Under the pieces are notes generated by a model. It made no database searches, was not told the DNA's origin, and saw only the letters and a program-made list of their open reading frames with translations. A stretch of DNA of 63,356 nucleotides, the filler included, from Hausera hauseri (Eukaryota): assembly GCA_046269625.1 (NCBI GenBank). It is 13 parts of 13 records of this genome, joined end to end, with 100 filler letters (N's around TTAATTAATTAA, not from the genome) between each part and the next. Parts side by side here need not be neighbours in the genome. Positions count along the whole stretch, not along the records: positions 24,427 to 28,534 come from JBJURY010757875.1; 12 more parts are not named here. The stretch is one strand, 5' to 3'. Position numbers and translations under genes: made by a program. Of this stretch, positions 150 through 62,240 are shown one piece after another. Numbering within the stretch: the stretch's first letter is position 1; each line of letters opens with the position of its first letter.

Positions 150-774
150 TGTACCTTATGATTATTAGTTTAATCAGTAATGCGTGTACTCGCTTGCGGT
201 CCTGTGCAAAGAACGTTTATCAAATTCTCCTCTTAACTATATGAAGTGTAAGTACAGATTTTAAGCTTAGGGTAGTCAAATCGCTTTTAAGAAGCGAAGC
301 AAAACTATGAATAAATTTACTCAATAAAATTTATTAAACAACAATTACCAATCTTTCCAAATAATCACGGAAGCACAGTATCGAATGACTCTTTAATGTT
401 TCTACAGATTAATCCTTCTGATTTTATCAGCAAAACGGTCTCCCCAATGATTCTGTCGTCTCAAAACTTCTGTTTTACTCAGCTGTTCTCATCCTTTTAT
501 AATCTCGTCTTCGATAATTAATTTGTTTTTTTATTCCATTCAATTTTGTTATTCATAATACGGTTTTGCTTTTTATACATTATTTTTAATTATTATAAGC
601 TACAACCTACGATCAATTCTATTAACTCAATACGTTCAAATTTTTATTCAATAAATACAATATTCTATTCTGTACATACAACTAATTATGTACACGAATT
701 CATAAATACATGATACCTTTTATATTTATTTATGAGCTACGATATCTATCAGCTGTACTCTTAGCCATACTACA
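150..774 (-). repeat. 3' LTR of complex Ty3/gypsy element, copy A (left boundary approximate)
   Basis: On the minus strand the PPT AGGGAGGAGAGATGA is directly followed by TGTAG at 774. TATAAAAGGA lies at about 492-501 and AATAAA at about 330-335. Blocks are homologous to 23590-23720 and 23900-23911. A candidate TACA end lies at about 150. Confidence 0.7.
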
Positions 775-1140
775 TCATCTCTCCTCCCTGAACGGCACAT
801 TCTGATGTGCCAATTGCGTCAGAAGAGGTGACGCCTGTGCGTGGCAATCGTAATAAGTCTATACGTTGCCTTAGACTGGGTTCGGAGCTTGTACTTGCCT
901 GATTTCCTCGAGTACTTGTTTCTAATTCATAGCTGTAATTGGGTTTTATTCTTACTACTCTAGTATAGGTTCCATTGGAAAAATACTTCAAGTCTGTAGC
1001 TTCTGCTCTACAGACTGGACATGTAGTTTTGCCCTTATCTAATGTCCATTTTTCCAAGCAATCTCGACAATATTTATGTTGACAATCCGAATTATCCAAA
1101 ATCACAGCCTTGTTTGAGATTATCTTCGCACACTGGGAAT
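770..1140 (-). pseudogene. RING-HC (C3HC4) finger, C-terminal domain of the retroelement accessory ORF (frameshifted near 1100)
   Basis: (F)PVCEDNLKQ / VILDNSDCQHKYCRDCLEKWTLDKGKTTCPVCR gives the C-x-H-x2-C-x2-C...C-x2-C pattern. The stop codon is the TAG of the LTR start TGTAG. Confidence 0.8.
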
Positions 1141-1790
1141 TCTTTTTCCTCTTTTTCCCAATTTTCGTCGTCCAAATTGACTCTTATCGTAATCTCAATA
1201 GATTCTACTACCAATCCTTCTTCATCTTGATATAGATAGGCATATATTCTTTTTTGTTTCGGATTTATTGAACTCTTCTTGGGATGGCATCTCACGGGCA
1301 ATAGGATCCAATTGCTGATATCATCTTGATCTAAGTCGGGAATTTCACCAGTCGATCGGTATTTCTGATGTAGCTTCTTAAGTAATATCTTTACGGACTT
1401 GTCTACGGGAACTATGAGTTTACCATTTCTTTTTGATTGAAATATTGGGACAACGTATTTTCCTATCTTGGGATTCTCTCAGACATAAGTATTCTCTTAT
1501 AATTCCCTTGCGGGTATCAATTTGACGAAGAACATTGCTTCCTTAATTCTTTGTTGACTATAATACTCTGCAGTTACCAATATTCTCGGGTAATCCTTGG
1601 TGGTGGCGAAATGTACATTATCTGAGGAACCTTTCTTTCGTAATATGTTCACTTTCGTTATCTGTTCCTTTTGTTTACTTGATGGTCTCGTAGATTTCTC
1701 GGTTTCAGACGGCACTTGTGTTTTTGATGGTTTTTCTGTTTGTATTCTTGGGTCTTCTGTCTTCTTTAGTTTCGGGTCTTTATTATCTAA
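1092..1790 (-). pseudogene. Middle part of the accessory ORF (Lys/Ser/Thr-rich linker plus unknown domain), disrupted
   Basis: ORFs 1497..1715 and 1092..1301 are in the same frame, separated by two in-frame stops, and read on toward the RING motif. Confidence 0.55.
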
Positions 1791-3258
1791 TTTGTATCCT
1801 TCTTTTGGTCCTTTTTCTCCTTCTTTACTTTTTTCTTAAATAAATAATCGAAGAAGGAGGTTTTTCTTTTAGTTGTCTTCCCGATTTCGGTTTCTGAAGT
1901 TCTATCTTTTTCTTCTAGGTATTTTTTGGGGACCTCGGGTATCTTGAATATGTCACTCTTTCCAGTGGTTTTCGTAACTGATTTAACGCTATAACTTGTA
2001 CTTGGTTTTTCCTCTATTTGCTTTTTGCTATTCGATCTTCCGGAATTAATTTCTTGAATAGTCACTTGATAATTCCATTTTTGTGTGTTTTTGACATTTC
2101 TTGGGGGAGAATAGGGACGGAAATGTTTTCTGTATCGGCTATTTGATCCTTCTATTTTAGGAAATTTGCGTAGATTCTGGCCGGGATTACTTGGGATCCA
2201 TTTATGTTCCCATATTAATCCAGTATTTATGTCCATCAAGTATTGGGAACGTTGACTAGCAGTTAGTAGTCGACTTATTTTAATATGTTCTGCACTCATT
2301 GCTTCGATCAACAGCTTAAATCGGCCTTCCACGGTCGGGGGTAGATATCCTTTCCTTTCTTTTACCTTTATCTCCATTTGTTCTATCACTGTCGGTTGGC
2401 TTTCCACTTCTCTTATCCCGGCTATGTATGTAATGGGTATTTCTAAATTTTCTATAATCATTTCTACTTGGTAATCCACCATGATACAACCATACAGGAA
2501 ATATGTCACATCTTCTTGTAATAGCTTATTATCCTTTCCTAATATCAATTGTTCCCTTTTTAGTCCGATTACTTCCGCGTAAGTTTCCTTTACTTTTTTT
2601 CCCGGATTAATTATTTTTGCGTAGATTTCCATTCCGTTCGTTTCTCGTATCGATATTTCGATCGGAATATAGTTTCTCAGGTCCTCTTCTCCGTAGTTCA
2701 CTGCGACGATCCGGATGTTCCTTGCATCTGCTACCAATCTAAATGAATATAAGTGTACATCTTGTTTCTCTTCGGTGGGCCTTTGTCTAAATTCTAATGG
2801 TGGCAATGGAATGGTTGTTGTTTCTTCCTCGGTTATTTCAACCATTAGCTTCGCGGGTAAAGCAGCTATGCGAAATTCCAGCTCATAGTCGTGGTCGAGA
2901 AAATCTCTACTATTAAATACAAATGTGCTATATCGACTTTGTTTTCCTTGGAATGAGTCCCATTTTTGGTCTTTTAACCTGTAATAAATTACTCCGTCAG
3001 CTAAGTGTATGAATAATTTCTGTTCTTTGTCCGCTCTGTGCTAGGTGATCTGCCGTAAGGAGTATGTCTTTGCATTCTTATTTTCTCTCCATGCATATAA
3101 GTAGACAGCTCTAGCTTACCCAGGTTTGTCCTTGTAGTTCTGTGTTGATTTTTCTGTAAATACTTTTGAAATTTAGGATCAGGACGGTTACGTATTGTTG
3201 CGAAAATCAGTCGATACTAAGTCGGCTCATTTTCGTGTCGATCCGATTACTTGCTAAT
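1787..3258 (-). pseudogene. Accessory ORF with DEDD 3'-5' exonuclease-like (REX4/ISG20/REXO1) fold, copy A; open frame 1787..2845
   Basis: IVAVNYGEE..PIEISIRETNGMEIYAKIINPGKKVKETYAEVIGLKREQLILGK..LLQEDVTYFLYGCIMVDY follows the Rex4-type pattern VALDCE..VSIV..G..YDKYVKP...VTDY.T.VSGI..EDL..G....VQ.EV..LL.G.ILVGH. It is homologous to 62268..63335. Confidence 0.65.
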
Positions 3259-3356
3259 CTGAAGAAGAAAACATAAAGGTTAATCTTAAAACAAAGTATG
3301 GTCTTAAACCAAAACCAATTCTTTGTTTGATGACAGAATAATCTGATCTGTAATTG

Positions 3357-4780
3357 TCAGGTTATTTTATCATAGGGGTCTATAGGGTTTTCCCTCTCCC
3401 TTAATTCCCATTCTGTATTTTTAGGGCGTATACAATAATAATTTTTGGCAACTAACCGAACAATCGCTGTTAATAAAATGAGAAAAAATGTTGACGATAC
3501 AATAATGAATAGGATCGGTAATGTGGTTAACCCTAGTGGTACTTGTGTGGTAGTAGGAGTTGTGCTTTCATCTTCGATATTTTCATATACTGGTGATCCT
3601 GTGCGGATTTCGCCCAGGGTACGTATTGTAATTGTTTGGTTTTGCTAATTCTTTGCATGGTGTTCGGACTGTGGTTTTAGCAAATTACATTCCGTCTGAT
3701 AAGTATTTTTAAACAATGTTGCAATCTGATCATTGTATGTTGTTCGACAATTTATGTGTATATCATAATTTTGTTTTTCCTCCAAAAAGAACACAATTTT
3801 AATTCGATATGCCGAATATTTAACATGTATGCTTCCTAATTCTTTTTGAGATATCTTGCTCGATGTAACAGTTCGGTAGTAGGACTAACCTTAGTGGTTG
3901 ACTATTTGGTTGTGGTTTTCACTGAGATTTTCCAACTATTTTCTGGATAGTAAGTTTGTAATTGTATACTTGGTTTATTAGGTCACACCTCGTATAAATC
4001 AAATTTTATTTTGAACTCCTGGTTCACGGGTATTTTACAACATGGATGTTGCACACCTGCGCGAATAAAACAATACCCTATTTTCTGAGTCGGTCCCTCT
4101 GTTGCTTCGAAAGTAATACTAATTTTGCGACTGACAGTTAGCTTTGTCCGGACATCTACTTGGATGCATTTTTTTGCCTTGTTTACATATATTCTCCGGA
4201 TATTTTCGTATAATAATTTTATATCGGGGTCAGTGGATCGCAGCATTTTGTTAGGTTTTATTCCATGATGTCTGTTCCAAGCAGGGATGACTAATTGGAA
4301 CTGTGGCTTCGTCTCGATGTAAACTTCGGATGAGTCCGGTAGGTATAGGCGATAAGTGAGATTATAAGTGCGTCCGAAATCTATGTCGCAACACGGCGTA
4401 TAGTCTATAGGTTCAAAATCACAATTTGTAGCTTTTTGTGTTGTTACATCGTGTAAGACGATTTGAAATCTTTCGAAATCGTGGTGGGACCTCCAAGCCT
4501 TAAATCCGACACACACGGTGTCCGCCGAAAAATAATTAATTATCATTGATTGCAATGATTTAGTATCTTCTTGTCTTTGAATTTCTCTGACTGTTGGTTT
4601 CTTTTCCGTTTTAATAGTTTCCGATCTTGATCCACTCTTCCGAATTCCGTATACATCTCCTAGCGTAGATTCGTCGTACCACCATTAAGTTTGTGTTCTC
4701 GGAATAAAAGAAGCAATTAATGATAGAGCTAAAACGATATGAATGTATGATATTGGTCTAACAATTATTGAGTAAGTTTT
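3357..4780 (-). pseudogene. Env-position type I membrane protein (signal peptide, 2 Cys-rich domains, S/T linker, FN3, TM, YDKI tail), copy A, disrupted
   Basis: Hydrophobic IHIVLALSLIASF follows the integrase tail. ORF 3983..4555 has two C..C..CC units. TECNLLKPQS, the TM segment and the C-terminal DPYDKIT* match 61228..62169. Confidence 0.7.
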
Positions 4781-4789
4781 TATCTCGTG

Positions 4790-5965
4790 TTGGCGTAGAT
4801 TATAACGTTTATTGGGCCTTATCTCTGTCTTAACAACTCTTTGTACTGATACGACTTTTTCCTTTCCATTTTTGTTGATATATACTGTGGTTGGCGTAAC
4901 TCTGGTAACACTCGTACGGTCCTCTGCCTGTTCGAGTTAATTTTAATGAGGTGCCTTTCCTGGCTAGTGGGTAATGTACATAAACCCAATTTCCTTGTTC
5001 TAAATCATGCGGTTTCGCTTTCTTGTCATATTGCTTTTTAAACTGTTCTTGATATTCTTGGGATAATTCTTTGGCGATTTCCCAACATTTTCGCAATCGA
5101 GTTTGTAGCACTTCTGCAAAATTCTTTTCTAAATCTTCGGGATTGACTGTGTATGGCGTCATTCCTAAGTCTGTGGGCGGCACAGCTTTACGTCCATACA
5201 TCATGAAGAATGTGGTAAATATTGTCGCTGGATGTGGTGTGGTATTAACTGCAAATTGAGTTCCTTCTAGAAATTCATCTCAATCCTTTTGGTCCTTGGC
5301 TACTACTGTGGATAATATACGTATGACGGTTGCGTTCATTCGTTCGACCATTCCGTTACACTGAGGGTGATACGCGGTAGTTGTTAATCGTTCGATTTCG
5401 AATATCTTGCTGATTTTTTCGAATAATGCACTTGTGAAATTTCTTCCTCGATCTGTGAGTATCTGGTCTGGGGGTCCGTATCGGCAAATAATTCTTTTTA
5501 CTACGGCTTTTGCTAAGGTTTCTGCCTTTTGATCAATTAGCGATATCAACTCGACAAAATGATTTAATCGGTCGACACAAGTCAAGATATACTTATTGTT
5601 CTTGTGAGTCGTAGGAAGAGGGCCTACGATATCCATAGACATGGCTTGCACAGGTCTATCGGCACATTAATTGGTTTTAATTCGGCCATGTAGTTTTTCG
5701 TTTTCTTTTGATTAGTTGCACATACTTCACAGGCATTTACCCAATTTTTTACATCAGTATAGATACTAGAACAAAAGTTATTCTTTCTAATTCGTTATTC
5801 TAATATTCGTTATTCTTTCTAATGTTTTTATCCAGGACATGTGTCCGGCTAAGTACGAATCATGTTCCGACGTTAGCACTTCGGTTCGTAACCCTTTTGG
5901 AACAACCATCAATTTCCTTCCTTTTCGTTTGTAATATAAAATATCGCCATTGCTTTTGTCATTTA
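4790..5965 (-). mobile_element. Ty3/gypsy integrase, copy A, disrupted
   Basis: SMDIVGPLP, ILTDRGRNF and TTAYHPQCNGMVERMN form the DDE core; a GPY motif follows (RGPYE). Near-identical to 59937..60850. Confidence 0.92.
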
Positions 5966-6065
5966 NNNNNNNNNNNNNNNNNNNNNNNNNNNNNNNNNNN
6001 NNNNNNNNNTTAATTAATTAANNNNNNNNNNNNNNNNNNNNNNNNNNNNNNNNNNNNNNNNNNNN
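5966..6065. other. Artificial 100-bp contig spacer (N..TTAATTAATTAA..N); also at 11619, 15742, 20154, 24327, 28535, 35775, 40533, 45193, 49873, 54456, 58947
   Basis: An identical 100-nt spacer with a six-frame stop linker is repeated 12 times. Confidence 0.98.
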
Positions 6066-13359: not shown

Positions 13360-15000
13360 TTGCTCCAAAAATCAAAATCAAAAAGATGTTCCCGATTGCC
13401 ATCCATTATCGATTACGTCCACACGACGACCAGCAAGTCAAGAAATGATACTTCGCGCTCTCTCCCGTATTGCGGCACGATAAACGCTCATATTCACGAA
13501 CCAAACAAAATACCAATGTTAACAATTTTTCAGTTCTAAATACACCAAATGATGGATTTGTTGACCCTTATGTGTGCCATTTGTTGTGGCGTTTTTGTGT
13601 GTTTGGAGAAAATTGTTTTAATAATTACATACCGACAGATATTTCGATTTGACAGATATTTTTAAATATGGCGAAATTTATCAGAAATGATAATTATGAG
13701 CGCACTGAAATTTCCATTAGAAAAACAAATGTGGATCGAAATCAGGATTCTAGTGGAAATGTTAAATTTTGAAATTCAAAAAATTTTATTCAAGAAATCG
13801 GTTCAAATTTATGGGCCAACGTGTTGAATTCTATCCCGAGTGGATTAGACAGGAATTGCAGAAGTCAGTAACGCGACCCAATAATCATATGGAACTTTTG
13901 TTACAAACGTACAATTACCGATCAACATCGGAATCTGCAATTGTGTTTGTTAAATTGATGGCCATAAGTTTGGATATGTTTAAAACAAATTGTCGGAAAA
14001 TTCCTGATCAATTCAGCGGCCAGCCTTGTAACGTTGTCGTGAAGGCCATTACCAATTTGCTGCAGACAATTCCTAGATTCTCGTTAAATGAACTGGATCT
14101 CAGCAATAACCGACTGTTGCATGTTTTCCATCTGGAAGTCCTGTTCCATTCTATTCCTATTCGATCACTGATCATTTCTGGCAACAGTTTGATTTACAAG
14201 TCATTTTTACGGGTGCGCCAACAGGCTTCGTTTTTCGTTAATTTGACTGTTCGTACAGGCAGTGAACTCACTGGTCAGAAACTGAAATATTTCAAACAGT
14301 TCGACAACGATTTGCTAGAAGTCTGCCCTTCGTTACAGTCGGTTAATGAGCCGTTAGTCGTAGTTGACGGATTCGGTCGATCCAGTCAGCTGCCTGTGAC
14401 TATCCGTTCGGTCGGGGAAGTTGAAGAACTGGTAATGAATTTTTTAGAGAACGTGCGATGAAAATTGAAACTGATAACTATGGATTATTAAATTATTATT
14501 CGTCGGATAGTGTACTGACAAGCAGCGCATATTATCATGATATTGTTCAGAACCAACGACGACTCGGTGAAGAATATTAACGTAATTTCTGCAATTTGCC
14601 TCGACTAAAAGATGATCTGAGACGAGCACAACTTATTAAAAGGCGATCATCACAAATTCTTGGATTTTATTCGGAAATCCCTCGTTTGAAACATATCGGA
14701 AATTCTTTGGTTCTGGACATAATCGTCAATAATAATCAGAGTAAAATATTTTCCATTATCGGAGTATTCGTTGAGGCGGTGAAAATTATGAATAAAAATC
14801 GAGAGAGTGATAATGACTTTCATCACCTTTTCAATATGCGTTTGTTTTCGAGATCGTTTATCGTCGTTCCACCGGGGAAAATTCTTCAGGAAAATTGGAT
14901 GATAACAAATCCAACAGATGGTTTATTTCGGGTAAAATTATTTTCAATGTTTTGGTGAATGATGTGGTTTCTATGGCAATTTATTGCAGAATTATTTGTG
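13360..15000 (+). pseudogene. NXF1/TAP-family nuclear RNA export factor-like gene (LRR plus NTF2-like domains), intron-containing, probably degraded
   Basis: LRR LNELDLSNNRL. NTF2-like segments VEELVMNFLEN, RAQLIKR..ILGFYSEIPRLKHIGNSLVLDI..FSIIGVFVE and RLFSRSFIVVPP..WMITN..LFR. A short GT..AG intron follows 14930. Confidence 0.7.
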
Positions 15001-18800: not shown

Positions 18801-20153
18801 ACGACGTGCAAAGATGACGACCAAGGAGATTTTGAACAGCGTACAATTCCGGAGCGTTCTAGTTCAAAAAATTCGGCTTCTACAGCCTGTCTACGATGAG
18901 GTGACAGTAGTCGTACCTTTTGGCGTATTGGTCGTTGATGCTGTGTAGTTATGTGATGCACAGTGCTGTTTGTAAGGGTAAACGAATGATCTTTTTTAAG
19001 TACGCGTGGACATGATGTAGTAACGAATTGCTCTAAAGTTATATGCAATTGTGATAGATTCGGTGGTTATGGTGAAGCAGGTTGAGAATTGGCGTGTGCG
19101 ATTTGTGAATTGTTTTGTGATGTGTAGTCAAGTGGTATTTGGAGTAAGATGGTCGGATGGCAGGACCGCAATTAATGACAATGATCCTCGATTGAATATC
19201 AATATAATTATTTAAAAATTTACGAATTGAATTATTGTTATGGAAATTCGAAGTATTTATTGATTTTCCCAAAATTCACCTCCATATCTCGATCGACTGC
19301 ACGGTAGTCGAAATGCTATTGTCATGCTCAGTAATGCTGCCAGTGATGCCGCTCCTCAGACATCGTTGACACAGTCAACCAATAAATTATAATGTGATAG
19401 AAAATCGAACCCTAGAATTGCCGTCTGGACGTTAGCAACTGTGAACGTCCAGTGAAAAGGTGAAGGAAATTTTGGTAAGATGAAAGATAATTTAGCCATG
19501 CCAGAAATGTGCAGCGGTTGACATGCAGCGGTGTATAAGGGCTTAATTCTGAATAGTGAATTTTGCACAGGAAAGGTTTGTGGTAATAGAGAAATTGCTG
19601 TACCTCTATCGATGAGGAAATCAACGGATTGCGTTGTAGGAACGTGATTGCAGCCTTTAGAGTAAAGACAGTAAAAGAAGCTTGTCGGTATTCAGAAAGT
19701 GAAGCAGTGCCTTTGCCAGAGTTTGGCGTGACTTCCGGCGGCAAACTTAGTTTTTTTGGAAAGGTGAACTAGGACGACTATTAGAAGAAAAGGAAGCACG
19801 TCTGTTGTTCGTATCTGGTTTCAAAGTTCAGCCTGGAATGCATTTACGAGCTTTGTATTTAAACTTTGCGTGGTAGATGCAAATAACGATGTCTGAAGAA
19901 AACTTTTATTATAAAATTTGCACCCTAGGCACCATTTCTTTGCACTTTTATTGAATCTGCTGTGATAGTAGCAGATAGACGACCGTGTAGGCGATGGTTA
20001 ACGGTTTCCCAACGCAGAATGGGTGCGGTCAGCAACAAAATCCCTTCGCCGGGACAGGGAAAGTTCGTTTAATCTGTTGTTTATATTGTTAATTGTTGCT
20101 TGTAGTGCTGTATTTTCGGCACGTAACTGATTTAGTTGTTGCTCTATTGATGT
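15842..20153 (-). mobile_element. CsRn1-like Ty3/gypsy element (gag C-end to 3' LTR start at 15936), decayed
   Basis: PR, RT (SKSPWSSSLHVV, FRPCGDYRQLN), RNase H (TTDASTT, YSTFDRELL), IN (VHIDIVGPLP, ITDQGPQFES), PPT then TGTGGTGCCC. AAAAAAACTAA at the gag end. Confidence 0.9.
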
Positions 20154-20253
20154 NNNNNNNNNNNNNNNNNNNNNNNNNNNNNNNNNNNNNNNNNNNNTTA
20201 ATTAATTAANNNNNNNNNNNNNNNNNNNNNNNNNNNNNNNNNNNNNNNNNNNN

Positions 20254-21220
20254 TGTACTGCTGGATCAAGTATTTTATAGGTATACTTTAATTCTTTTTT
20301 AGGCCTTTTCTCTGAAATGGCGGAATTTGTGACAGTACTCACTTGAGTAATTGGTTTTATTGTTGCTTCAAGTGAAAATTTCCATCTGATCTTCCGGACA
20401 GTATCTTCCAGAGAAAATATTCGATTCGTTAGGTCGGAGTTCATAAATGTCGAAATATATTTTGTACTTATAATCTACCAGTATTTTACAACATGGATTC
20501 GATATTGTGGACCCAATGCCACAATATTCTGGTAGGGGAGCTAATTCATATAATTTATTAAATCGAACGGAAGTTGCTTTGTCGTCCGTCAACAACCTTA
20601 TGGTTTTTATCTGGATACATTTCTTTTTCTTATTCTTAGAAATTCCGATTATGTTCTCGTCTAACATTCGTTTTTGTGGATTGGTTGATTGGATTATTTC
20701 ATCAAGTTTTACTTGGAAACGTCGATCCATCGAAAGTGTGATTAATTGAGATTGTGGATCCACTTCGGCGTAGACATCATTTAAATCTGGCAAATACAAA
20801 TGGTAAGTGCGAATATATGAATCTCCATAGTTTACGTCACAGCATTGTGTATAATCGCCCGGTTCGAAATTACAATTGATCTTTGCTTTCCTTGTTATAT
20901 CATGTAGTATAACCTGAAACTTCTGAAATCACGATTTGTTTTGTTTGTTCTAAATCCAACACATTTTCAGATGTAAAGTAATAGGCCTTCATCGTTTGTA
21001 ACAACTTGGTGTCCTCTTGTTTCATGATTTATTCGGCAGTTAATTTCTTTCCCTTTTCTACCGTTTTGTTTTAGTCCACTTATACGAATTCCATATACAT
21101 CTAGCATAGTTTTGTGACCCACCATAGGACCCTAATTTTTGCTAAATATGCAGCAATTAGTGATTGTACTAAAACTGTGTGTACGTAGGATGAGTCGAGC
21201 AATTATTGAAGGTTTTGTTT
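20254..21220 (-). pseudogene. Env-position Cys-rich/FN3 membrane protein, copy B (truncated by gap)
   Basis: NCNFEPGDYTQCCDVNYGDSY..YHLYLPD and KKCIQIKT..EYCGIG..NPCCKILVDYKYKIYFDIYE. Confidence 0.7.
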
Positions 21221-21359
21221 TTCTGCTATTTTGATTTTGACGCAGGTTGTAGCGTTTGTTTGGTCTTATTTGCGTCTTAACCACTCTTTTAACCTTCAGA
21301 ACTTTACCATTTTTGTTAATATAAGCTGTAATTGTTGTTGTTCTAGTGATCTCGATGAG

Positions 21360-22255
21360 GTATCCTGGAATTTATCATCCGTTATTCCTTTTACGAGATT
21401 GGTTCCTGTAAATTTGTTAGGGGCGGCAGTTATACCTCCATTCGATAGGCTTACCCAATTGGTTTCAATACATCTGAACGTAGATTATCCTAAGCTAGCT
21501 TTACATTCTTTTAAGATTGTTGGTTGAGTTGCCTTAACTAACAAGACTCTAATAAGTGGCATAGCTAGTAGAGGAGTATCCTGGTACAAAACCAGGAGTT
21601 CTTGTACACAACGTTTTTCCTCGACATTAATTGGTACATCTCGCCCCACATTCATAGGTTAACAAGACTTCGCCTGTGACTCAGCCGAAAATTTCTCTCA
21701 TTGGAATTATTGTCATGCTAATTCAGGGTTGGCGTAAATTAGAGCTAATTTTGTTCTCATAATTTCCATATTTAATTTGCAGTCGTTCGTTATCATGTGA
21801 TACAGTTCGGTTATTCCGTCTCGTTTTTTGTAGTAGAAATAATCGTCTCTATTTTTCAAGTAATCTTCGATTTGTATATCCTGCGTTTCCTATTTATATG
21901 TCTGTCCATTTATTTCGGTTTCCGCTACGAAAAATGCCTCGTAATTTGTGGCATACATTACTACTTCGCAACGCGAGAGCATTTCTTTATAAATTTTAAT
22001 TCAGGTCAGTGATTAGTACAGTTGGTGTAGAGTGCTCGGCAACGTCTTCTCGTGTCCTGGCGCTACTATCTACTTTATTCACATCATTTACCAGTAGTTT
22101 CATTGACCTTCAGCTCCTTAATTTTGATGAAATTACAATCATTTCCCGAGGGTGGTTCCCATATTATGATTGAACTTCTAAAAGCACAAGTTCCATCTTG
22201 TAAATGACATTTTTGGTTTTCAATATATAGTTTGGTGATGCCGTCTTCGTTTATA
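21360..22255 (-). pseudogene. Chuvirus-type (class III-like) viral glycoprotein remnant
   Basis: Manual minus-strand translation through stops and frameshifts: CHLQDGTCAFRSSIIIWEPPSGNDC; MYATNYEAFFV; YLKNRDDYFYY..ITELY..NDCKLN..LALIYANPELA; FG*VTGEVLLTYEC; RCVQELLVLYQD..MPLIRVL..EC..F..WV. Motif order matches Jingchuvirales-like G proteins. Confidence 0.65.
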
Positions 22256-22259
22256 GGTG

Positions 22260-23158
22260 ATTTGGACCTATCAATTTTCTATTATTACTCTGGTTCGTTG
22301 ATCCTTGTCTATTGTTCGCCTTATATCTATATTCATTGTTTTCGTTTTTGTCATCGATTTCCATAATCCGAACTTCTATAGCTGTTTTGGTTGGTATCTG
22401 AATTATAGTTTGGCTTATTACTTGAATTATTCATGTTCCGATTATTTCCAAATTTCGATTATCGTAATTTCTATTATTGTTATTGAACCTTCTAACATCT
22501 CAGCTACGGTTATCGTTTCGATCATTATTTCTAATTTCTGTCATTTTGTCTGGCATATCTATCTAATGCCATTTCTAAGTCTTGAGCTAACTACAAGGTA
22601 TTGTCAAAGTTTTCTGGTCGAGCTAAAATTAACTATTTCGCTAGGTCTCTAGACCGTATACAATTTATCGATTGTGTCGTCATCATAACGTCTATATCAG
22701 GAATTACTTTCTCTGCAGCTTCGCGTTCGGTTTCATTTTTAGCTTTAGTTACATTCGCTCTTCTTAACATACTTATATAACTATTTGTCAATTTCTTCAG
22801 TGCAAATGCAAACTGGGTGACTGATTTGCCCTTCTCTTGCATCCTGTTTTGAAAATCTATGAATTTCTGTTGAGTTACCGTGGGCAATAATTTACGGTTT
22901 AAGGCTCCTACTAGTGACGGCCAAGATTTTTTTCTCGTCGCTCGTAAGTTTTGTATAGGCATTAGCAGCCAAATTCTTTAAAAAAGGTGATAAATGTTTT
23001 ATCGTTTGTTCGGGTTCAGGTCCGGCACCTTCTGTATGCAGCTTATATGTTCTCAAAAATTCGTTTAATCCGTCCGGATACCCAATATATGCCGGCAGAT
23101 TCAAAGAATTGACTGTAAAAATGTCCAGTTTCGGCACTACTACGGGATTTTGTGCCAT
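22260..23158 (-). pseudogene. Gag (capsid-like plus Asn/Arg-rich linker) of complex gypsy element, frameshifted
   Basis: LPAYIG..LNEFLRTYKL..LSPFLKNLAANAY..W..L..ALN..F.NRMQEKGKSVTQFAFALKKL fits a retrotransposon gag pattern. Confidence 0.75.
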
Positions 23159-23514
23159 TGTATTAATTTCGTTACCTAAGTCTTTTATTATTTTTACGAA
23201 CTTTATTTTTCATATGAGTAATTTTAAATTTATTAGTTTGCTCGATAGCAGTTAAATTTAAGTTAGGTAAATTTACTCTAGTCTCAGAAAGTTAACGTTT
23301 ATCTGGAGTTTTATTACGTCTATAAATATTTCTGCGCTTTTGGCATACAAGTAAATTTCCTTAGCCATTTAGATTAAGGGTTTCGTTTGATTTAGACCTA
23401 TCAATATTCGTTCTTTGTTTTTAACCTTTAATTAATTCTTGTTCACTTATACCAAAGATTTTGTTAGCGAATCTTAATTAATTTAGTTAATGTAAGAGGC
23501 ACTGATCGCCGGTA

Positions 23515-24322
23515 TGTAAATAGTTAACTGTCGAAGTCAAGTTTAGCAAGGCACAAACTGTCCTTGGGCCCAAATCGTCTCTCAGCTATGACAAATGTTC
23601 TCGCCTTAACTATGAATTTTAAAATTGATTTTAAACTTAGGGTTGTCATATTACCTTTAAGAGGCAATGCAAAACTATAAGACAGTTTTAATAACGACAA
23701 AATATATTGAACGATAAATAAACAACCGCACAGCGTCGAATGATATCAACAACTTCGAATGAAGACGATTCTTTCAATAAGTTCGCAATTTGGTTCGTTT
23801 GGATTCTATCACGATTTTCCGGATCAGCTTTCTTTAAGAACTCAGTCGAATTTCACTAATCGGTTTAACCAGATTTTCTTCCTCTTTACTCTTTAGCTCG
23901 TTCCTTTTATACTGTCTTATTCTGTGAATCTTTCTTAGTATTTAATTGTGAGAAATTTATCAATGGGAATTAATTCATTATTCTAAAATTTTACTAATTT
24001 CTTGTGAAAGTTTTGCATTTAACTCGTTGAGAAAATTTGTTTTATTATTTAATCAAACACACTGCTATTCTTCTATGGTTAATTTTGTTGAGAATTCTTG
24101 TAATTTGACTTAAACACATTTTCCATTGTTCCATAAGAAATTCTACAGCTAGAGATTAGAGTTCACTATACAATTCTATATTTTAGAATTATGTACAATT
24201 AATTGACGACTTTTTGTACCAAATGTAAAATATCAATCCACATTACAGTATATTTGTCAATTTCATTTGTTCTCAAGTTTTATATTTTCTAATAGTAGAG
24301 GAAAAATGAGAATTCTAATACA
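23515..24322 (-). repeat. 5' LTR of complex gypsy copy B (upstream boundary approximate)
   Basis: Shares TATAAAAGGA (about 23902-23911), the hairpin block and the CTTAGGGT block with LTR A. Ends TTTACA at 23515, followed by a possible degenerate tRNA-Arg PBS (CGGCGATC). Confidence 0.6.
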
Positions 24323-25085
24323 GAAANNNNNNNNNNNNNNNNNNNNNNNNNNNNNNNNNNNNNNNNNNNNTTAATTAATTAANNNNNNNNNNNNNNNNNN
24401 NNNNNNNNNNNNNNNNNNNNNNNNNNAAAATTTTTTATGACGTAATTGGGCAAATCCGCCAAATAACGGTTCCGGCACTTTCTTGCTACAGGAGCAGATA
24501 TTTTGACCAAAAATAAAATTTTTTGTTAAAATGTTTAATACATCGCATTAAGCATATATAGAGCTAAAACGCGTTCATGATTAAAGACTGATAAAAGCTA
24601 ATTACTTTTCTTGAATGCTTACTTGTCTTAACCGCAATCTATTAAATTGTAATTTTTGTACAATGAAATTCCTTTACATCAATGGATAACAACAATTATT
24701 ACATATTTTTTTGATAAACAAGAAATTTTTTTTGTTCTCCTTCCTTTACTGAGTAGCGTTTTTAAGTAATTCCATTAAATATATTCCTCGCTTCTTTTTC
24801 GCCGATAATTGACTATCTGACGAATTACTTTTATCCGAGCTCATTAAATTTAAATAGCATCGTCTATTGTTTCAGTATAATCTAATTCGATTTCTTTACA
24901 TGCTACTTCAATTTCCGTTTTGTGCTTTTGTGATTTAAATTCGACAAAAAATATTTCGAACTAAAATGTTCTTCAAAATGTAACAATTATTTCGTTGGTA
25001 GATAGTATTTCCACGCATCCATACTTAAGGATTTTTACCGTGACAAATAGCTTTCCAACTAATATTCTCATCAATCATAATAAAA

Positions 25086-25600
25086 CTAATCAGATAATTT
25101 ATTTGAAAATCTACGAATAAATATATGTTCAGCGGCACCATGGCGTTCAGGTGTAATGTGCACAGGCCAACATAAGACCATTCTATTACACGTAAATATT
25201 CTACGCAAGTTGGCTGGAATCCACAGGTGACTGTACAAAACGCGTAAGTCCCCATCGTCCTCGGTCATTAGCAGATGTAGAAAAGTATTTGAATTTATGG
25301 ATGTCGTATCCACGTCATCAAATATGATTGCGTCATTGTTCGGACTCAGGGCATCTAGAGAGGTGTAATTGCGTACATCAGATGATTCATAAAATGTGAT
25401 TTGGCGTACGCAGTTTTTCCGATACCTATTAGTTCAACCATTGACCATTAAAATACGAAATCAGTAACGGAAAACTACCTGTTGGTCCAAATATAATGTA
25501 CCTTTTTACTTTCGAAAAATCAGTTAAAGAAACATTACATGTTCAGTGCGATTGATTAGCTATCGCAGATCCACCAATGGTGCGTTGTGGCGCACGACCG
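25086..25600 (-). pseudogene. CRESS-DNA-virus Rep-like SF3 helicase domain (endogenous viral element) with 53-bp intron 25426..25478
   Basis: Spliced Walker A YIIFGPT^GIGKTAYAKSHF, Walker B AIIFDDVD, FLHLL, LRVLY..IPA and motif C RIFTCN. One frameshift near 25375. Confidence 0.75.
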
Positions 25601-25949
25601 GCATGAAAAAATAACTGACAAAAATTTTATTACAGAATTAAGGAGTACTGGAATAGAATAAAGTTGTAATACTGCGTAATGCAAGTCAGTAGCGTACCCA
25701 AATACCCAACATACTGATGTATTTAACTTTCCACCGGCCTCCCATACTTTATGTGTCACGTGTTACGGTGCCCATGACATCACATATGTTAAGCCTAGTG
25801 TTCTTGTGACGTAGTCAGTTTCTAAGTTGCTAGCTTTGTCATAACGGAAAACACAGGCACATGTTGGATTCCTACATGTTTGAGTTCCTAAAGGCATCTT
25901 CTTTATATTTGTTCTTCAATATGGTATATTGTATACTCAATAAGTTATT

Positions 25950-26182
25950 TTATCGTGCAGCGGATGCGATCTGAGGGGCATAAAATGCGCGAAATCGTTC
26001 GGTCGCCGGGCCTTTGCCCGGGCCCCAATGGGGAACTTAAAACGCTCCCCCAGAGCCCTAGCTGGTGGGAGCGGATTACAACGTCCTCCCAAAGAACCCC
26101 TCCCTCGGCTCTTCGGGCCACGCTCTTATCGCCTCTGGCGATAACGCTCGGCATTTCAAAAACCCTTAATCCGCTCCTGTGA
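25950..26182. repeat. GC-rich dispersed repeat or DNA-transposon end fragment
   Basis: Abrupt GC-rich island (GCCCGGGCCCC..GGGGAACTT..CGCTCCCCCAGA.CCCTAGCTG) in AT-rich DNA; no credible ORF. Confidence 0.4.
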
Positions 26183-26629
26183 ATTAGGAATTGATTTTAT
26201 AAAATATTCATGAATATTTATTATTGTAAGATAAGGCGACGAACCAATAGGTCAAGAGAAATATTAAATCAGTTAAAGCTTTTAAGGGAAGATTCCCAAA
26301 ACGAATTCATAGAAGACATAAGCGTGCCTAATAATGAAATCCAACAAACATTCAAACGGCAAAATTGTCCGTTAATGAAGTAACCATCAGCTAAAAAGCT
26401 GACCAATCCTAAACGGCAAGATTGCCCGTTAACACTCTTTAACGATAAGAATCGATCAACCAAGCGACAAAAATGTCGAACAATAAATGCAGTCGTGAGT
26501 TATCGTATTAAAATACAAGATGAAGCCACTAAATTCTTCACCTCATCAAAACTACAAATGAAACAAAAATTCATCTATCCGCAAGCCTTTTTCTAAATCT
26601 TTTTGGTTGATATTTATTTACTTTTTTCG

Positions 26630-28030
26630 GTTCAAGAAGGATCGGAAACTGTAGAAAGAACCGAGTCTTTTGACTTCATGGTTATTGATAACCTCAACCA
26701 AACAGTTAACGAAGATTATGCCTACTATGAAATGGAATGCTTATCCATAACAATTTGAAAGGACATTATCAAAGATCTGGATTAATTATCAAATTATCCA
26801 ATACGGCAACAACATTGGCAGATTTAATCGACATCTCCAGTCGGACAACATCAGTATACATATCGGTAGCAAAAGGAGATCTTCAAATAAAAAGTAGAAC
26901 ACATTTAAACTAAATTACGGATACTCTTGACATTCCCGAATTAACTACTATTTGCTTGGACAAAAGGTTCCACAAGAATGCTACCATTATATTCCGATCA
27001 TATGGCGGCCCACCTCCGATAATCTACGTTGAGATTACCCGCAGAGAAACTTTCCCTCAAATTGAGCATGAAAAACCTACCTATCCTCCAAATCTACCCA
27101 GCCGAGACCAACTTATAAGTGGAATATCTTTCTCTCGACTACCACTCATACCAGAAACTAAGATAGCTATAACAACAAACTCTGCTTACTTGTTAACGCC
27201 ACTACGGAATAAAGAAATAACTCTTATAGAGTTGACTGTTACCGACCTAAAAAGAAATATTATCCTGGATAAAGTTGTTACTCCGCGTGATCGAGTCGAC
27301 AACTTCGATAGTCAAATTACCGGACTTAAAGAAATGGACTTAATAGGACGAACTGACCCATACCAGATTAGATCCCTCGTCAGGCAAAAGCTTAATGACA
27401 AACTAATTATTGGCATGGATATTTACAGTACAAATCTGCATCTTGATTTATTCGATATCAACTCAATATTTAGGATCATGGATTTATTCCACCATAATGA
27501 GATAAACCCAGAAAAGAAGTTGAGCCAAAGCAGATTCTGATGAAATTCAATATCGCGTATCCCCTTCGCACTAGACAGAAAGCTGCAACAATATTGAATA
27601 TTTACAAATCTATCAACGAATATAAAACCAAAAATCGTAATCCACAAGAATCGCCTATTCAATCACAATCGGATAGACAAAGATCAACCGCAAAGGAAAT
27701 GCTACAAACGGTCGAGCATATTCAAAGTCTTGCCTTATAGGAAAACCGCATAAAGTCAGTTCCTGAACCCATCGAAATTAGTCAAATGCCACAAACATCC
27801 ACACATATACAGTCAATCAACGATCGACCACTCTCCGCCGCCGGTTCCAGTGAATCTATTCTAATAGATTTGACGAAAACAATAAAAAAGGAAGACATCT
27901 CAAGAAATTGTAATTCTCGAAAAGAAAATCCAAAAGAAAGGACAATGGGGTCAATCAGAATCCGCAAACTATTGCTACAATAACGGAGTCCTCAAAACAT
28001 ACCCTCTGATACTGAGGACAATATCATCTA
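26630..28030 (+). pseudogene. Accessory ORF with REXO1/REX4-like DEDD exonuclease fold at the 3' end of an LTR element (copy C)
   Basis: IELTVTDLKRNIILDKVVTPRDRVDNFDSQITGLKEMDL..VRQKLNDKLIIG; the ExoIII-position helix reads RTRQKAATILNIYK. The ORF ends just before a PPT. Confidence 0.65.
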
Positions 28031-28040
28031 AGGAGAAAGA

Positions 28041-28534
28041 TGTTGAGAAGCCAAATGCCAGTGTAACACATAGAAGAGTAACATGCCAATAAAAATTGAC
28101 ATACGATAATATTTCCACAATTACTGTGACACACTATTCCATAACTGAAAAATTGATTACCTTTCACTTCATTTTCTGAAATATTTATTTTATTTATTCG
28201 GCGTAATATTTATTTCTTTTATCTCCTGTATTTTATTGCATACGTGGTGACAATTAATTGCGTTTTTTATGGATTATCCCTGAACCGCGTATGTCTAGAA
28301 ATACTATAAACACCTTTACTAATTGACAACAAATCATTATGGATGCCTATTCTTATAATGGTTGTAAGCATATTGCTTTTTATGACTATTGTACTTTTAA
28401 TGTTACATTATCACATTATTTTCAAATAATTTTCTTGTCATTATTGTAATTTGAAAATAATACCTTTTCTTAATAAGAGCTAAATAAAACAAAATAATTC
28501 CGGCTCCGTAATTCGCCGGTTGTTTAAAATCAAC
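28041..28534 (+). repeat. Putative 3' LTR of copy C (truncated by gap)
   Basis: The purine tract AAGGAGAAAGA (28030-28040) is immediately followed by TGTTGAG; TATAAA at about 28305 and AATAAA at about 28483. Confidence 0.55.
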
Positions 28535-30019
28535 NNNNNNNNNNNNNNNNNNNNNNNNNNNNNNNNNNNNNNNNNNNNTTAATTAATTAANNNNNNNNNN
28601 NNNNNNNNNNNNNNNNNNNNNNNNNNNNNNNNNNTTTATACTTATATTGTTTGACTTTCATTTGTTGCACCATTCAATGTATGTGCAGTGAGTTTCAATG
28701 GCCCAGAATATGTAATTGCTCTCTGGGAAAAATACTTAAAGCATTCAACCCTCAAATCTAATTTTATAAATAAAATGTGTACAGTTAAACTGTGGATAAT
28801 TTTCTTCACATTTCTTTGTTAATTTGATAAATTACCATAAGAAGTCGCATTGACTCAAGGCTTTTCATTTAAAAAAAATTCGGATACTTTGGCGGACTCG
28901 GACCAATGAATATTGACAGCCAAGACTTCAATGGAATTTGTTTTGAGAAAATTTTAGTCGATGTTACTAAGTGATCGCGTGTGTATGTTTGATTTGTTGT
29001 ATATTCATATTTTTAGAAAATTAAACTATATATGCAACAATATTTTAAGAATGTAACTTTATGTTACCAAGGTTACTACTATAAAAAGTATTAAAATTAA
29101 TCTGAGATACTTTAAGAAAAAAAATATTTTGATTATGAAATGGACTTAAAGGAACTAAGATTCAATTTGATTTAATTCTTTCATATAACGGAATAATTTG
29201 CTAACGAATTTCAGAAGCTTTATATGTTGAGAAATGCAGATTCTACAGTGTCTGTAAATTAATTTATGCGAAAATTAAGAGTTGTTTAAATTACTACAGC
29301 AGCATAATACAACTTTATTCTGACACCATATACAGTTGGTTTAACCCTGTGTTACATAGCAGTAACGTTTAGTACCAGCAACAAAAACGACTGTCATTTT
29401 ACAAATTCTTCGATGCTTTTAGTCAATATCAAATCGAATGTTTATAGATGAGCTTTTGTGGATAAAAAATTAGCTGAAATTAAAATTAGGTTTTTATCAT
29501 CAGTAATCCAGTAATCGGCAATTAAAATTCATGCAATAGACGATTATCAAATTTGACAATGTATATTTTTAATACGAAAATTAAATCAGCGTCGAACGTA
29601 AATTTACATATTTTATACACGATTGTGCCTAATTAATTAATATGATAAAGCTTATGAATGAAAATTAACAAAGTTTTGTTGAAAATTTTGGAAAATGCTA
29701 TAGTCAAATAAATTTCCAATTTGTTTCTTATATCAACATAGATTTTGTATTTCTGAACATACCTCATTTTTGTTTTGTAAAGGAATTTAAACATACATGT
29801 ATCATGTTGTCTTAGTTATTTTAAAACTCTTCAATTACTCACAGTATTATTAGTTTTTGGTATGCCTCGCCTGTAGATGTCGTTTAAAATTAAGAAATAA
29901 CTAAGATGATGTTTAAAATCTTTTAAAATTTCCTTGAAAACTGAAACTAGACTTGTTCAGAAATACAGAATCTATGTTGAATATAGAACTGTTCTATAAC
30001 AAATAGGCCTCGAAGAATC

Positions 30020-31110
30020 GGCCAAAGAAAAGCTCATCAGTCTGATAACTGATGGAGAGTCTGTCAACACTGGTAGAAAAAGTGGCTTGTGAGTTCTGTT
30101 GAATATGTTCCTTTCCAGCGATATTCATTGTCTTTGGTGTGTAGCGCACAGAACAGATCTCTCTTTTAGTGACACTGAGACGTTGGTTATGGAAGTAAGG
30201 CACTGGAGATCAAATGTCAAGTCATTCGAATGAGCGAATTGAAAGAAATAGCAAAAAGTTTGAATTCCAAATTCGTTCGTTTCACTGAGCATTTCGAAAT
30301 AAGATTCATTGATCATCTGATTAGCCTCTGCAATGCTGTTTGGAAAAACTTGCCGTTTCTTCGAATTCACTGACAGAGATTGTTACGGGGTCAAATCGTA
30401 ACAGCACGAGGATTTTTGAGACTTTGGAAGCCAAGTTGATCGCTAGATGATCTTCCAGAGATATATGATCACTATCTGTGACGTTATGGTTGCAAGACAA
30501 GTGATTGTCGATTCATCGGATCTCATTGAATTGGGTCCCTTTCCAGGAGTCGAAGATTGGAAAATTCTAAAGACTACAACAGGCACAGCTGCAGAATGTG
30601 CGGAGGCATATGCAGAGAACACCGAAAGGCGAAGACATAATCACAGTCTCGTATCTGTCAAACGTTACTCTGATAGTGTTAAGTTCGAGCCAAAGAATTT
30701 CTGTCGTACCGTCTTTGTGATGACCAAAATATAATTCTGAAAAATATGAAAAAATTTTTTGTGGCGACGATCATGTGCGAAGCTGTTTAATAGTTTGAAT
30801 ATTTCTGTTCAATGATCTACTTTCTCCAAGTTTGTTCAGTAATACCTTTCATGGACACCATACAGTATTGCGCCAGAGGGAGCAGTGTTTTGCCACGTTC
30901 TGTTAAAAAGTGCCAAACAATCAACAGCGAAACAAGAAATCATTTACAGTCGAATGCAAATTGCATTAAATGCAACAGGCGCAGCACACTTTGACATTCG
31001 ATCGACTGTCGCAAGATTTCTTATGAAGAAAGAGCGACGATATGCAATGCCAGAAAAAGAAATGTACGAAAACCACCACTTCACTACGAAATTATTTGAA
31101 AAAGATAATG
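30020..31110 (+). mobile_element. hAT-superfamily (ZNF862/KIAA1586-like) transposase remnant
   Basis: LISLITDGESVNTGRKSGL, WCVAHRTDL (CxxH), FEIRF..HL and RMQIALN; multiple stops and frameshifts. Confidence 0.7.
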
Positions 31111-32594
31111 AGTTGCTTGCTATTATACAGCCTTTGTCTTGTAATTTGTAGACTAAAATTCGGAGTAGCTACTTTTCTTTAATTTTGCCCTCGCGGCGTG
31201 CCGACGGGGAGCGGGGGGTAATAAACCTCTCCCCATGGAATTTGACTTTAAAATTTTCCCCATAGATTACGTCGCCAAAAAATAATTTTATTAGTAAGGA
31301 CATATAATTTTTTTAAAATTTCGTTAATAATTTTAAAAAATGGAGCTTTACTATATTAGGAATTCGCAAAAATTGAAAGTTTTTATATGGGCATGAAAGA
31401 AGTGCCGTGGAGAACCATGAATGCAAGAAGGTTGCATTGTTACATAACGTGTCGCCTAGTCAAAATTCCTTAAACTATGCTTTGGATACTGCAAAATATG
31501 TAGTTTTTGATCTACGTCTCAGTAGACCCTGCCCTCTGGAAAGTCGAAGTACTGATTCTTCTCATTCAGTAAATACAGTAGGCTCTCACACTTTGAAAAA
31601 CCAATTTTTTAATGATATTTCACAACGTCATTCCCTCGAGCTCCGTCATCCGTCACAAATTTTTAAAAATATATTGTTGATAATTCTTCTATATAACAGC
31701 AGTTGTCTGTAATCAGCCAATACTAAATTATTGACAGTTTTATTGCACATTGAAACGAGAGAAGAAAATCATTCGTTTGCTAATTAACGCTACTAGTCAC
31801 AAAGTTCCTACTATATTAAGTAGTATCCGTATTCATTACCGTCCTCCAAACATGATTTTGTGTAATCAACTTCTTGATCCTGAAAAAATAAACTTAAACT
31901 TAATTATTGGAAGTTATAACTGCAAAAGATGAATGATCTCACTGATGCTCAACTACCAGTTACATTGGTCATTTTTGATGCTATTCGATTCTGTCAGATG
32001 GTTTGCGATAATGTTTCTATAAGTTGTCAGTAGGGTTCTTTAGGAGCAACATATAAGGTTATAAGCTACACATACATGTCTTTTAGAGGACAATAATGTT
32101 GCACGATTTGAACGTTCTAATATTTCGATCTTACTAAGATCTTCATCTGATGAGTATTTGTCAAAAAACAGATATCAGAGACCACACACTCAATATTTAA
32201 ATAATTATCCCAACAGCATTTCCTGATTTTGTTGGATGTGGATAATATTCTTCTTGCTCAGGACTTTTAAAAATTTGTATATCGGCAAAAAGCTTTCTTG
32301 AAAAATTATAAAAATTGACATGAACTAAACAGACGAACATTAAATTACAAGCCGATACTGATAACTCTGCATTTTAATGAAGTATATTCGCCTGGAGATA
32401 TTTTAATATATGCTTCAAAAATGGGAACATAATTTGTAGACCTGTATGACATCAATTAGTACTAATACTGCAACCAAAAACAAACCATAGCAATAACAAT
32501 GCCTGGATGTAGGTAATCGTTCGAACATTATATAAATCAATGAAATGAGTCATTAGAACTTGGAATTTTGAGTTGTATTACATCAGTAGGGGGA

Positions 32595-34541: not shown

Positions 34542-35774
34542 ATGTGCAAACTGTACAAAGATTGCCTAGCTCCAATCCATGAGTTAGAAACCTGCCATAG
34601 TACTATGATGAAATACTATGGCCACATGTTCAACAGAATCCAATACTATATATGCCCTACATGTGAGGTAGTGTGCAGGACAGTATACGAGGAATTCTAC
34701 AACGTACATAAACGACACTTGATATCCTTCGTCAAGTCAAAAAATTCTATAATAATATGCCCACAACATCTATTGTGTCAAAATAAAACAAGGTGCAGTT
34801 CATATATGCATTGCACATGTACAATACATAACCCCGAGAATTGTCACAATACCATGAGGATCTATTATGACCACAAATTCAATCGAATCCTTTATTATAT
34901 TTTCCCAGGATGTGAGACTGTATGTGATGGCGAATACATACAGTTCTATGAAGATCATAAGGATCATCTAACTGACTTTGCATCAAAGTCTAAGAAGATC
35001 ATATTTAATGAGCATAGGCCAGTTGCACAGTCCGCAGTGCAGTCCACAGTACAGTCCTCAGTACAGTCCACAGTACAGTCCGCAGTACAGTCCGCAAAAA
35101 TAAAACGCCCATCAGGTCCATCAGATGCCTCAGTCTCAACAGGCGTAGCAGCTCAGCCAAAAGCCCAAGACAGCGGCCAGTTGATGCTGCTGCACTAAAG
35201 AATAAAGTCCGCAAATATATCATTGATGCAGCTGGACAAACAACCATTAAGGAGTTCCTGGAATATGCAAAGGAAGAAATAGAGGGGATCCTCCAAGACA
35301 ATATGACTGAGCTCAATGCCCTTAAAGTTAACATGAAACTTGAGGCCACATACGTCAATGTCGATGCTAAAGAATCAAATACGGCCTTCAAGACAAAAAT
35401 AGGCCTATATTGGAAAACACAAATATAGCTGAATAGCTGCATAAAGAGCATACGAAGCTGATACTGTGAAGCCGATGAGAGCCAGGATAAGAAGAGTGGA
35501 TGGACTCTGGAAACCATCATTAGACTGTTCTATATGTACACAGATACTCCCTCATGCGAGGCAGTTCATATATATAGCTTTCGGACTGGATCGCTAATAA
35601 AAAAGCATGTGTCAGTGTTCAGAATAATGACAACATGTGCTTCATGTATGCCATTCTATCAAAACTCGTAACGGATCAAAGGCATGCAGCAGATCGGATT
35701 TGGCTATATAATGATCTCCAACACAACTACGACTTTCAGTGTATCACATTCCCTCCATCCATAGATGAAATCAA
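34542..35774 (+). mobile_element. 5' part of protein-primed PolB gene (Polinton/adintovirus-like) with N-terminal tandem Cys/His repeats
   Basis: LKVNMKLEATY, AFKTK, KSGWTLETI, RGSSYI.L..WIANKKACVSVQNNDNMCFMYAILS and DFQCITFPPSIDEI. Confidence 0.75.
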
Positions 35775-56680: not shown

Positions 56681-57121
56681 TTTCTTGGGTTTTGCTTCGA
56701 AAATACCGGATGCGAAAAAAATCTTACATTCGTTCAAACATCATTCTTAAATTTATAACGGAAGTCTCATTCATAACGATTCATCCAGTGAATATTCGGT
56801 ATCAGACCCTATTAGGTCGAAAGTGTTTATGGGGCAGAGATGGATGAAACAATCAGTCTCATTATGTTGCTGAAAATTTGGTGTCAGAGTTAGAATACAT
56901 CACCGCAGTACTACACCGGAGTGCACCAACTTTTCTTTGCAGTTACAGTCCATGGATTGTTCCCTCTCCGGCAGGAACCTTTTAATCTATTTTACTTTAT
57001 GGTATGAATATTTTAATTGTTGTTTTGCTGTTATATTTTTTAACAAACCGATTTATTACTATTCGAATATGCGCATTTTTAATCGTACCCTTATTCGCTT
57101 TTACATAGGGCTATTTTTCAG

Positions 57122-57850: not shown

Positions 57851-57869
57851 CATCTTCCATCACAAAGAC

Positions 57870-62169: not shown

Positions 62170-62240
62170 TATTACAGAGCAGGTTATTCTGTCATCAAAC
62201 AAAAAATTGGTTTTGGTTCAAAACAATCCTTTGTTTTAGA

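Follow-up and report, generated by a model that had tools for sequence, protein, structure and literature searches.

The locus and its repeat-rich setting

In this study, we examined a stretch of 63,356 nucleotides (filler included) from Hausera hauseri, here called the window, and describe a helicase remnant on its minus strand at 25536-25089, within an unbroken contig that spans 24427-28534. The window is eukaryotic, probably from an invertebrate animal, and repeat-rich (Pfam matches to NXF, NOT2/3/5, ankyrin, armadillo and DDE_3; retroelement remains). Its contigs are joined at 12 places by identical 100-base spacers (44 N, TTAATTAATTAA, 44 N; e.g. 24327-24426 and 28535-28634), across which adjacency is not assured. 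The features of the locus are listed below.

25560-26179, no strand assigned: repeat with dispersed copies, likely a DNA transposon of MITE type; inserted some 20 nt upstream of the helicase and enclosing a Cys-containing frame
25543-25545, minus: in-frame stop in the sequence, three codons ahead of the aligned part
25479-25538, minus: 60-nt coding segment (20 codons) that closes with the first half of Walker A; duplication template
25426-25478, minus: 53-nt GT..AG insert in the Walker A glycine codon, phase 1; decayed duplicate of 25538-25479 and likely former intron
25379-25425, minus: second half of Walker A and the following helix, IGKTAYAKSHF (profile match, hmm positions 181-197)
25376-25385, minus: frameshift, placed approximately (near 25380), where the frame of matches to relatives switches
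25086-25376, minus: remaining SF3 helicase and stop
25328-25314, minus: Walker B in AIIFDDVD (motif in sequence, aligned to relatives)
25199-25185, minus: motif C, in IPANLRRIFTCN (motif in sequence, aligned to relatives)
25115-25110, minus: RR, probable arginine finger (motif in sequence, aligned to relatives)
24430-25010, no strand assigned: another multi-copy repeat, on the downstream side of the helicase

Read on the minus strand, frame CNVSLTDFSKVKRYIIFGPT closes with YIIFGPT at 25480, before the 53-nt insert. After the insert comes IGKTAYAKSHF, then the frameshift, then the frame VRNYTSLDALSPNNDAIIFDDVD..IPANLRRIFTCN..RR up to the stop at 25088-25086, so that AYAKSHF and AIIFDDVD lie in different reading frames. 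An initial annotation had described GPT and GIGKT as split by a 53-nt GTAGTT..CTAATAG, with AYAKSHF, AIIFDDVD and IPANLRRIFTCN downstream, and had called the insert frame-breaking if retained. We find both to be correct on this strand, and the insert holds an in-frame stop as well. The motifs of that account stand; it overlooked the frameshift near 25385-25376, the stop at 25545-25543 and the likely origin of the insert as a decayed copy.

A single contig of run X1 covers 25242-25673 with 0 differences, so the insert, the frameshift and the upstream junction are present in the contigs of these reads too; X1 may be the assembly's own sample. The stretch 25044-25223 has no cover in X1 contigs, and at 80% likeness one contig is the sole one over the helicase. 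By comparison, 25548-25950 and 24430-25010 each draw many diverged X1 contigs, a depth that is no copy number.

The upstream repeat is matched by up to 36 diverged contigs per site, and 16 contigs exit the window at 25564-25568 with unlike flanks. Contigs with loose ends there number 10 and 6 (agreement 0.52 and 0.57; X1), and the far end of the repeat was placed, as a probable position, at 26179 by imperfect inverted-repeat likeness. The putative ends are short, imperfect inverted repeats with 8-nt flanks alike at 6 of 8 positions, and the element may be of hAT-like type. The Cys-containing frame (about 25897), which had been suggested as an earlier Rep exon, lies inside this repeat, which ends at about 25564, and is therefore unlikely to be one. 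A homologue search with it found none; Pfam gave zf-tcix only (E 0.023, 14 residues), and a longer read of the frame had no Pfam match. Across the repeat family its third positions account for 4 of the 10 minor variants and for 7 of the 12 majority differences, and four places in it show indels of 1-2 nt (hand counts), which leaves coding by this frame without support. Beyond the transposon, 26251-26180 has one stop-free frame, which is in phase with the helicase and resembles the Rep middle region no more than chance would allow (p 0.14-0.61).

Further multi-copy sequence lies just past the transposon at 26211-26480, with a 22-nt direct repeat 57 nt apart. The downstream repeat (24430-25010) is matched by many diverged contigs and has no Pfam match in two frames; within it, 24700-24960 (minus) carries protein-like broken frames, also with no Pfam match. 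Elsewhere in the window, 770-6000 and 59260-63350 are two related LTR-retroelement remains in opposite orientation (68-80% identical); among their contents are integrase-like frames and a RING finger (Pfam), along with long ORFs of unknown kind. A 208-aa frame at 26914-27540 (plus) has no Pfam match and presumably resembles a DEDDh/RNase T-type exonuclease. Broken frames with the family-B polymerase-like word NSLYGK occur at 42003-44900 (minus) and 34542-35428 (plus), with no Pfam match, and we take them to resemble Polinton/Maverick remains. Long, apparently intron-poor, broken copies of host-type genes lie at 13766-14958, 39174-39959, 48000-49900 and 56874-58070; their domains are NXF NTF2, NOT2/3/5, ankyrin and armadillo (Pfam), the ankyrin copy being presumably tonsoku-like and the armadillo copy importin-alpha-like. 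These copies are perhaps retrocopies.

The helicase as half of a CRESS-virus Rep

A protein search with the 96-aa frame of the helicase found 47 proteins at E<=1e-3 (best E 9.4e-08; none at 1e-10). Rep domains (Pfam) are present in 30 of these 47: Viral_Rep in 12, Gemini_AL1 in 15 and the Rep central domain alone in 3. The other 17 comprise 4 with generic P-loop families alone, 11 with no domain and 2 that are unrelated repeats. A named member, the Rep of Periparus ater CRESS-DNA-virus sp. (QTE03536.1), was present in one of 10 clusters looked up. In the Atlas, the first cluster (0.96) is 97% viral, mostly Cressdnaviricota. Read with X at both breaks, the remnant yields a 132-aa peptide, which we compared with 43 proteins (the 47 minus 2 unrelated and 2 shorter than 150 aa). 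It matches 43 of 43, the best being P0004 at 43% over 114 columns, while P0009 aligns gap-free at 39% over 117 columns; within the 60-nt coding segment, 11 of 20 residues are identical to P0004, again gap-free. In a tree of these proteins the fragment falls in no supported clade. Structures in the PDB that match the predicted model of P0004 (mean pLDDT 77) include AAV Rep68, Vientovirus Rep, SV40 large T and PCV2 Rep; among viral models, unclassified CRESS and crucivirus Reps come first and a Genomoviridae Rep stands at rank 13. Walker A, Walker B, motif C and a probable arginine finger, the motif set of an SF3 helicase (PMC5923481), are all present and aligned to relatives. No match was obtained with Pfam on the helicase frame, with a word-indexed search of longer proteins, with the PDB by sequence or with the single peptide against viral contigs, and a profile search returned 4 proteins only, with no host protein among them.

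From the domain tally, the Atlas cluster, the 43-protein alignment and the matches of the P0004 model, we conclude that the remnant represents the helicase half (SF3) of an unclassified CRESS Rep and not of the gemini/genomovirus type. The CRESS-virus Rep-like SF3 helicase proposed at the outset is supported, and its description as gemini/genomovirus-like is not: in the relatives, which are unclassified CRESS Reps, this helicase occurs together with either HUH type, Viral_Rep (12) or Gemini_AL1 (15). Such Reps (QTE03536.1; Logan proteins P0004, P0009 and P0034) share with the remnant the motifs GxxGxGKTx[FYW]AxxHF, DGIxxDD, IPAxxxRIFTxN and WP..PE...RR, and the remnant is 39-43% identical to them over 114-117 aa. 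They are uninterrupted and have a HUH domain, whereas the remnant is a helicase half only, split and broken. Rep chimerism between HUH and helicase types has been described before (PMC5923481).

That the frame instead stems from a non-viral P-loop NTPase, cellular or carried by a transposon, is in our judgement very improbable. The modest best single-sequence E-value and the 17 matches with generic P-loop families alone, no domain or unrelated repeats would allow it. Against it stand the 30 matches with Rep domains, the recurrence of the same helicase at 16 loci, some on contigs of about 2-3 kb with Arg-rich capsid-like ORFs, and the closest relative, P0004, which in its predicted model folds like HUH + SF3 Reps; these observations refute it in the main.

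Of the other parts of a virus, profiles gave no HUH or middle-domain signal above reversed controls, either in 20000-32000 or in the window, in agreement with the earlier remark that no HUH motifs are visible upstream. Among 27 ORFs of 10 viral loci there was no capsid match, only helicase matches, and the origin search found 8 nonanucleotide-like words with a stable hairpin in 0 of 8. To judge by its sequence, the remnant is a Rep-derived fragment and not a whole Rep, with its HUH half lost or unrecognisable. In this it resembles the endogenous CRESS Reps of animals, fungi and protists, which are common and consist of Rep fragments, often decayed (as described in PMC3198968 and PMC6186406). 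It differs from those of PMC3198968 in its insert, the main text of that report being without the word 'intron'.

The insert, its source and its decay

Aligned end-to-end with the preceding 60 nt, the insert (25478-25426) has 39 of 53 positions identical, with 14 mismatches and 7 gap bases, all in the insert copy (p about 0.001-0.008). Among 5000 dinucleotide shuffles 2 attain this score, or 3 of 5000 once the ends are left off; of 3000 adjacent pairs in the window 1 does so, and of 2974 window tiles 27 do when a local match at any place counts. With each of four scoring schemes a template of 60 nt came out best, and scores as high were reached by 0, 0, 0 and 1 of 333 other GT..AG 53-mers and by 2, 3, 3 and 20 of 2500 random 53-mers, respectively. 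MAFFT aligns the insert with the template too, at lower identity; Tandem Repeats Finder did not report the duplicate (74% identity with gaps). The ends of the template unit are marked by near-identical 8-nt words AACAnGTA, 60 nt apart, and the unit holds AGGT and can be written with AGGTA at its end. By this sequence comparison, the insert is a tandem copy, since decayed, of the 60 nt that precede it.

The arrangement, so read, fits the model of Rogers, in which tandem duplication of an exon segment holding AGGT yields an intron (PMC3443670; PMC4974935). Gains of this type (Rogers 1989; ATP2A1; fission yeast; potato RdRp) are described as having, like the present case, an adjacent coding duplicate with AGGT and an unchanged protein (PMC3443670; PMC4974935). 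Those are cellular genes with transcript support, whereas here we deal with a dead virus-derived gene known from DNA. As the duplicated unit holds AGGT, the GT..AG ends follow from the duplication and by themselves prove nothing.

That the insert is a true intron of other origin, such as an introner or a transposon that left a target duplication of 5 nt, and resembles the 60 nt upstream by chance, seems to us quite unlikely. A 5-nt direct repeat does lie on both sides of the insert, and the 27 window tiles and the 20 random 53-mers under one scheme show that comparable scores arise elsewhere. The match, however, is end-to-end, adjacent and best at exactly 60 nt in all four schemes, and its interior alone is equalled by 3 of 5000 shuffles. 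No second copy of the insert was found in the window or in X1, for which reason we place an introner with target-site duplication low.

The decay of the two copies bears on whether the insert was spliced. A gene dead at duplication predicts that both copies decay alike, an unspliced in-frame duplicate of 60 nt that the downstream copy, which adjoins IGKT, is kept, and a spliced one that the upstream copy is kept. We polarised the codons with 39-44 relatives per column (23 in one column). Of 19 codons compared, the copies share 3, a gap in the insert affects 6, and the other 10 differ; among the last, the upstream copy is closer to the relatives in 8, tied in 2 and worse in 0 (one-sided sign test on 8:0, 0.004, by hand), in columns that were built with the upstream copy and are therefore biased toward it. 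In the insert, none of the Walker A residues G, P and T is preserved, and a stop stands in place of a conserved K. There are 108 co-optimal alignments of the two copies; the gaps lie all in the insert under four of four gap settings, with 3-5 openings. The decay is one-sided, in the insert copy.

Under symmetric post-mortem decay, with each copy taking half of the divergence (0.16 per site), one would expect 130 codons to show about 1.6 stops and 6-16 indels. We observed 0 stops and 1 indel in the 130 coding codons (joint P<=0.0025; frameshifts alone, P 0.07, 0.011 and 0.0002 for 2, 3 and 5 gap events), in counts that include neither the 25545 stop nor what may be an in-frame insertion close to the C-terminus. 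Such decay fits the data poorly. An unspliced in-frame duplicate would favour the downstream copy and the opposite is observed, which argues against it as well. The coding sequence is colinear on either side of the insert, the X-read being gap-free against P0009 over 117 aa. GT..AG occurs in 0.28% of the 122,690 53-nt intervals of the window, or 1.7% when any of six registers is counted. At the acceptor, CTAAT abuts AG and there is no pyrimidine tract, unlike in putative host acceptors judged by eye.

We consider it probable that the insert was formerly spliced. The intron inside Walker A that had been read from the motifs receives indirect support from its GT..AG boundaries and from the one-sided decay. 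It is doubtful, yet deserves weight, that the duplication took place in an already dead viral fragment, or that the insert is error-prone repair filler, and that it was never spliced, its GT..AG ends being automatic from AGGT. Any duplicated unit holding AGGT mimics an intron, decayed elements abound in the region, the acceptor is weak, and the statistics come from one 53-nt segment with an ambiguous alignment. What speaks against this history is decay that runs 8:0 one way with every gap in one copy, and a coding part far less decayed than it predicts. Repair fillers, moreover, tend to be short patches copied exactly; a colinear copy diverged by 26%, such as the insert, is not of that kind.

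The stage of the gain and what it would mean

Whether the duplication happened in a virus or in the host can be approached through relatives and copy number. We fetched 21 loci, of which 16 are Rep-like (on 15 contigs); the remaining five (L006, L012, L014, L019 and L021) were chance pattern matches and were dropped, three of them having been looked at further. Walker A is uninterrupted in 16 of 16 Rep-like loci, all of them distant (30-42% identity), from which no more follows than an ancestral uninterrupted state. Viral contigs contained 0 occurrences of a pattern for a TAG acceptor at the Walker A site. As to copies, a paralogue check of X1 at 80% likeness found no second helicase. The domesticated gene family suggested in the initial annotation is not borne out in X1 at 80% likeness, and the same result leaves a transposon unsupported at that depth; of its other proposal, an unknown spliced ssDNA virus or transposon, we favour the spliced ssDNA virus.

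We lean towards a gain of the intron in the virus, with integration afterwards. This stage is favoured by the single copy between transposons, the light coding decay and the repeated rise of spliced CRESS Reps, which are reported to have arisen several times in these viruses (10.1101/687855; PMC5822885; PMC7468197) and in which splicing can yield specialised isoforms (10.64898/2026.02.19.706752). The converse, a Rep helicase kept as a host gene that gained its intron in the host by the same duplication and died recently, we regard as unlikely. One-sided decay needs just selection and splicing, wherever they act; the transposon copy at the locus departs from most members of its family at some 20 sites over 385 nt (hand count), as would suit a death not long ago; and conserved, expressed Rep insertions have been described (PMC3198968), as have viral inserts in exon-intron genes (PMC10636211). 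A host gene is nonetheless at odds with the lack of a second copy at 80% likeness in X1, with the failure to find an upstream exon and with the repeat-dense setting.

For a gain in the virus, the steps may have been as follows. Slippage between the AACAnGTA words 60 nt apart would have copied the AGGT-ended segment, creating an AG|GTA donor and retaining a CAG|GT acceptor. The spliceosome would then have taken out exactly one copy, leaving the protein unchanged. The removed copy would have been free to drift, reaching 26% mismatches, 7 lost nt and a stop, so that a message left unspliced would break off within Walker A and yield a product lacking the helicase. Mastrevirus RepA is such a helicase-less product, which the one proposed here would resemble. 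After integration, a transposon would have landed just upstream, the stop and frameshift arisen, and the HUH half been lost or become unrecognisable. Taken whole, this account of a dead, integrated CRESS Rep helicase fragment with a duplicate likely spliced as an intron in a working gene, and likely so before integration, is one to which we give a little less than an even chance.

Spliced Reps are known from mastre-, becurto-, capula-, grablo- and genomoviruses, porcine circovirus and some cruciviruses, where, as proposed here, a GT-AG intron lies in rep and the unspliced message is without the helicase. The gemini/genomovirus intron sits at one shared site (10.1101/687855). That site lies upstream of Walker A. 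The insert of the remnant is not at that site; it lies inside Walker A, the Rep lineage is an unrelated one, and the sequence it came from is visible. The circovirus intron is reported at another site (10.1101/687855), and two crucivirus Rep introns are placed between HUH motifs II and III (PMC5822885). In a literature scope outside most subscription papers and the intron-site supplements of 10.1101/687855 and PMC7468197, we found neither a Rep intron inside Walker A nor a tandem-duplication intron gain in a viral gene. It may well be, though we give it somewhat less than an even chance, that an unsampled CRESS lineage gained its own spliceosomal intron in the Rep Walker A through a 60-nt tandem duplication, and with it a full Rep and a helicase-less short form, as an independent origin of spliced Reps with the source sequence still visible.

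In conclusion, the remnant records a CRESS lineage in a eukaryotic host, and it is likely that the birth of an intron can be traced at this locus. For most new introns the source is not identifiable, and the tandem-duplication cases described are few and cellular (PMC4974935; PMC3443670). The case bears on how CRESS viruses repeatedly acquired rep introns: an intron visibly copied from the neighbouring exon, with one-sided decay, would offer a mechanism and suggests a simple screen, in which each predicted Rep intron is aligned to its flanking exons. If our reading is true, this would be a traceable intron birth in a viral gene and an independent origin of spliced Rep.
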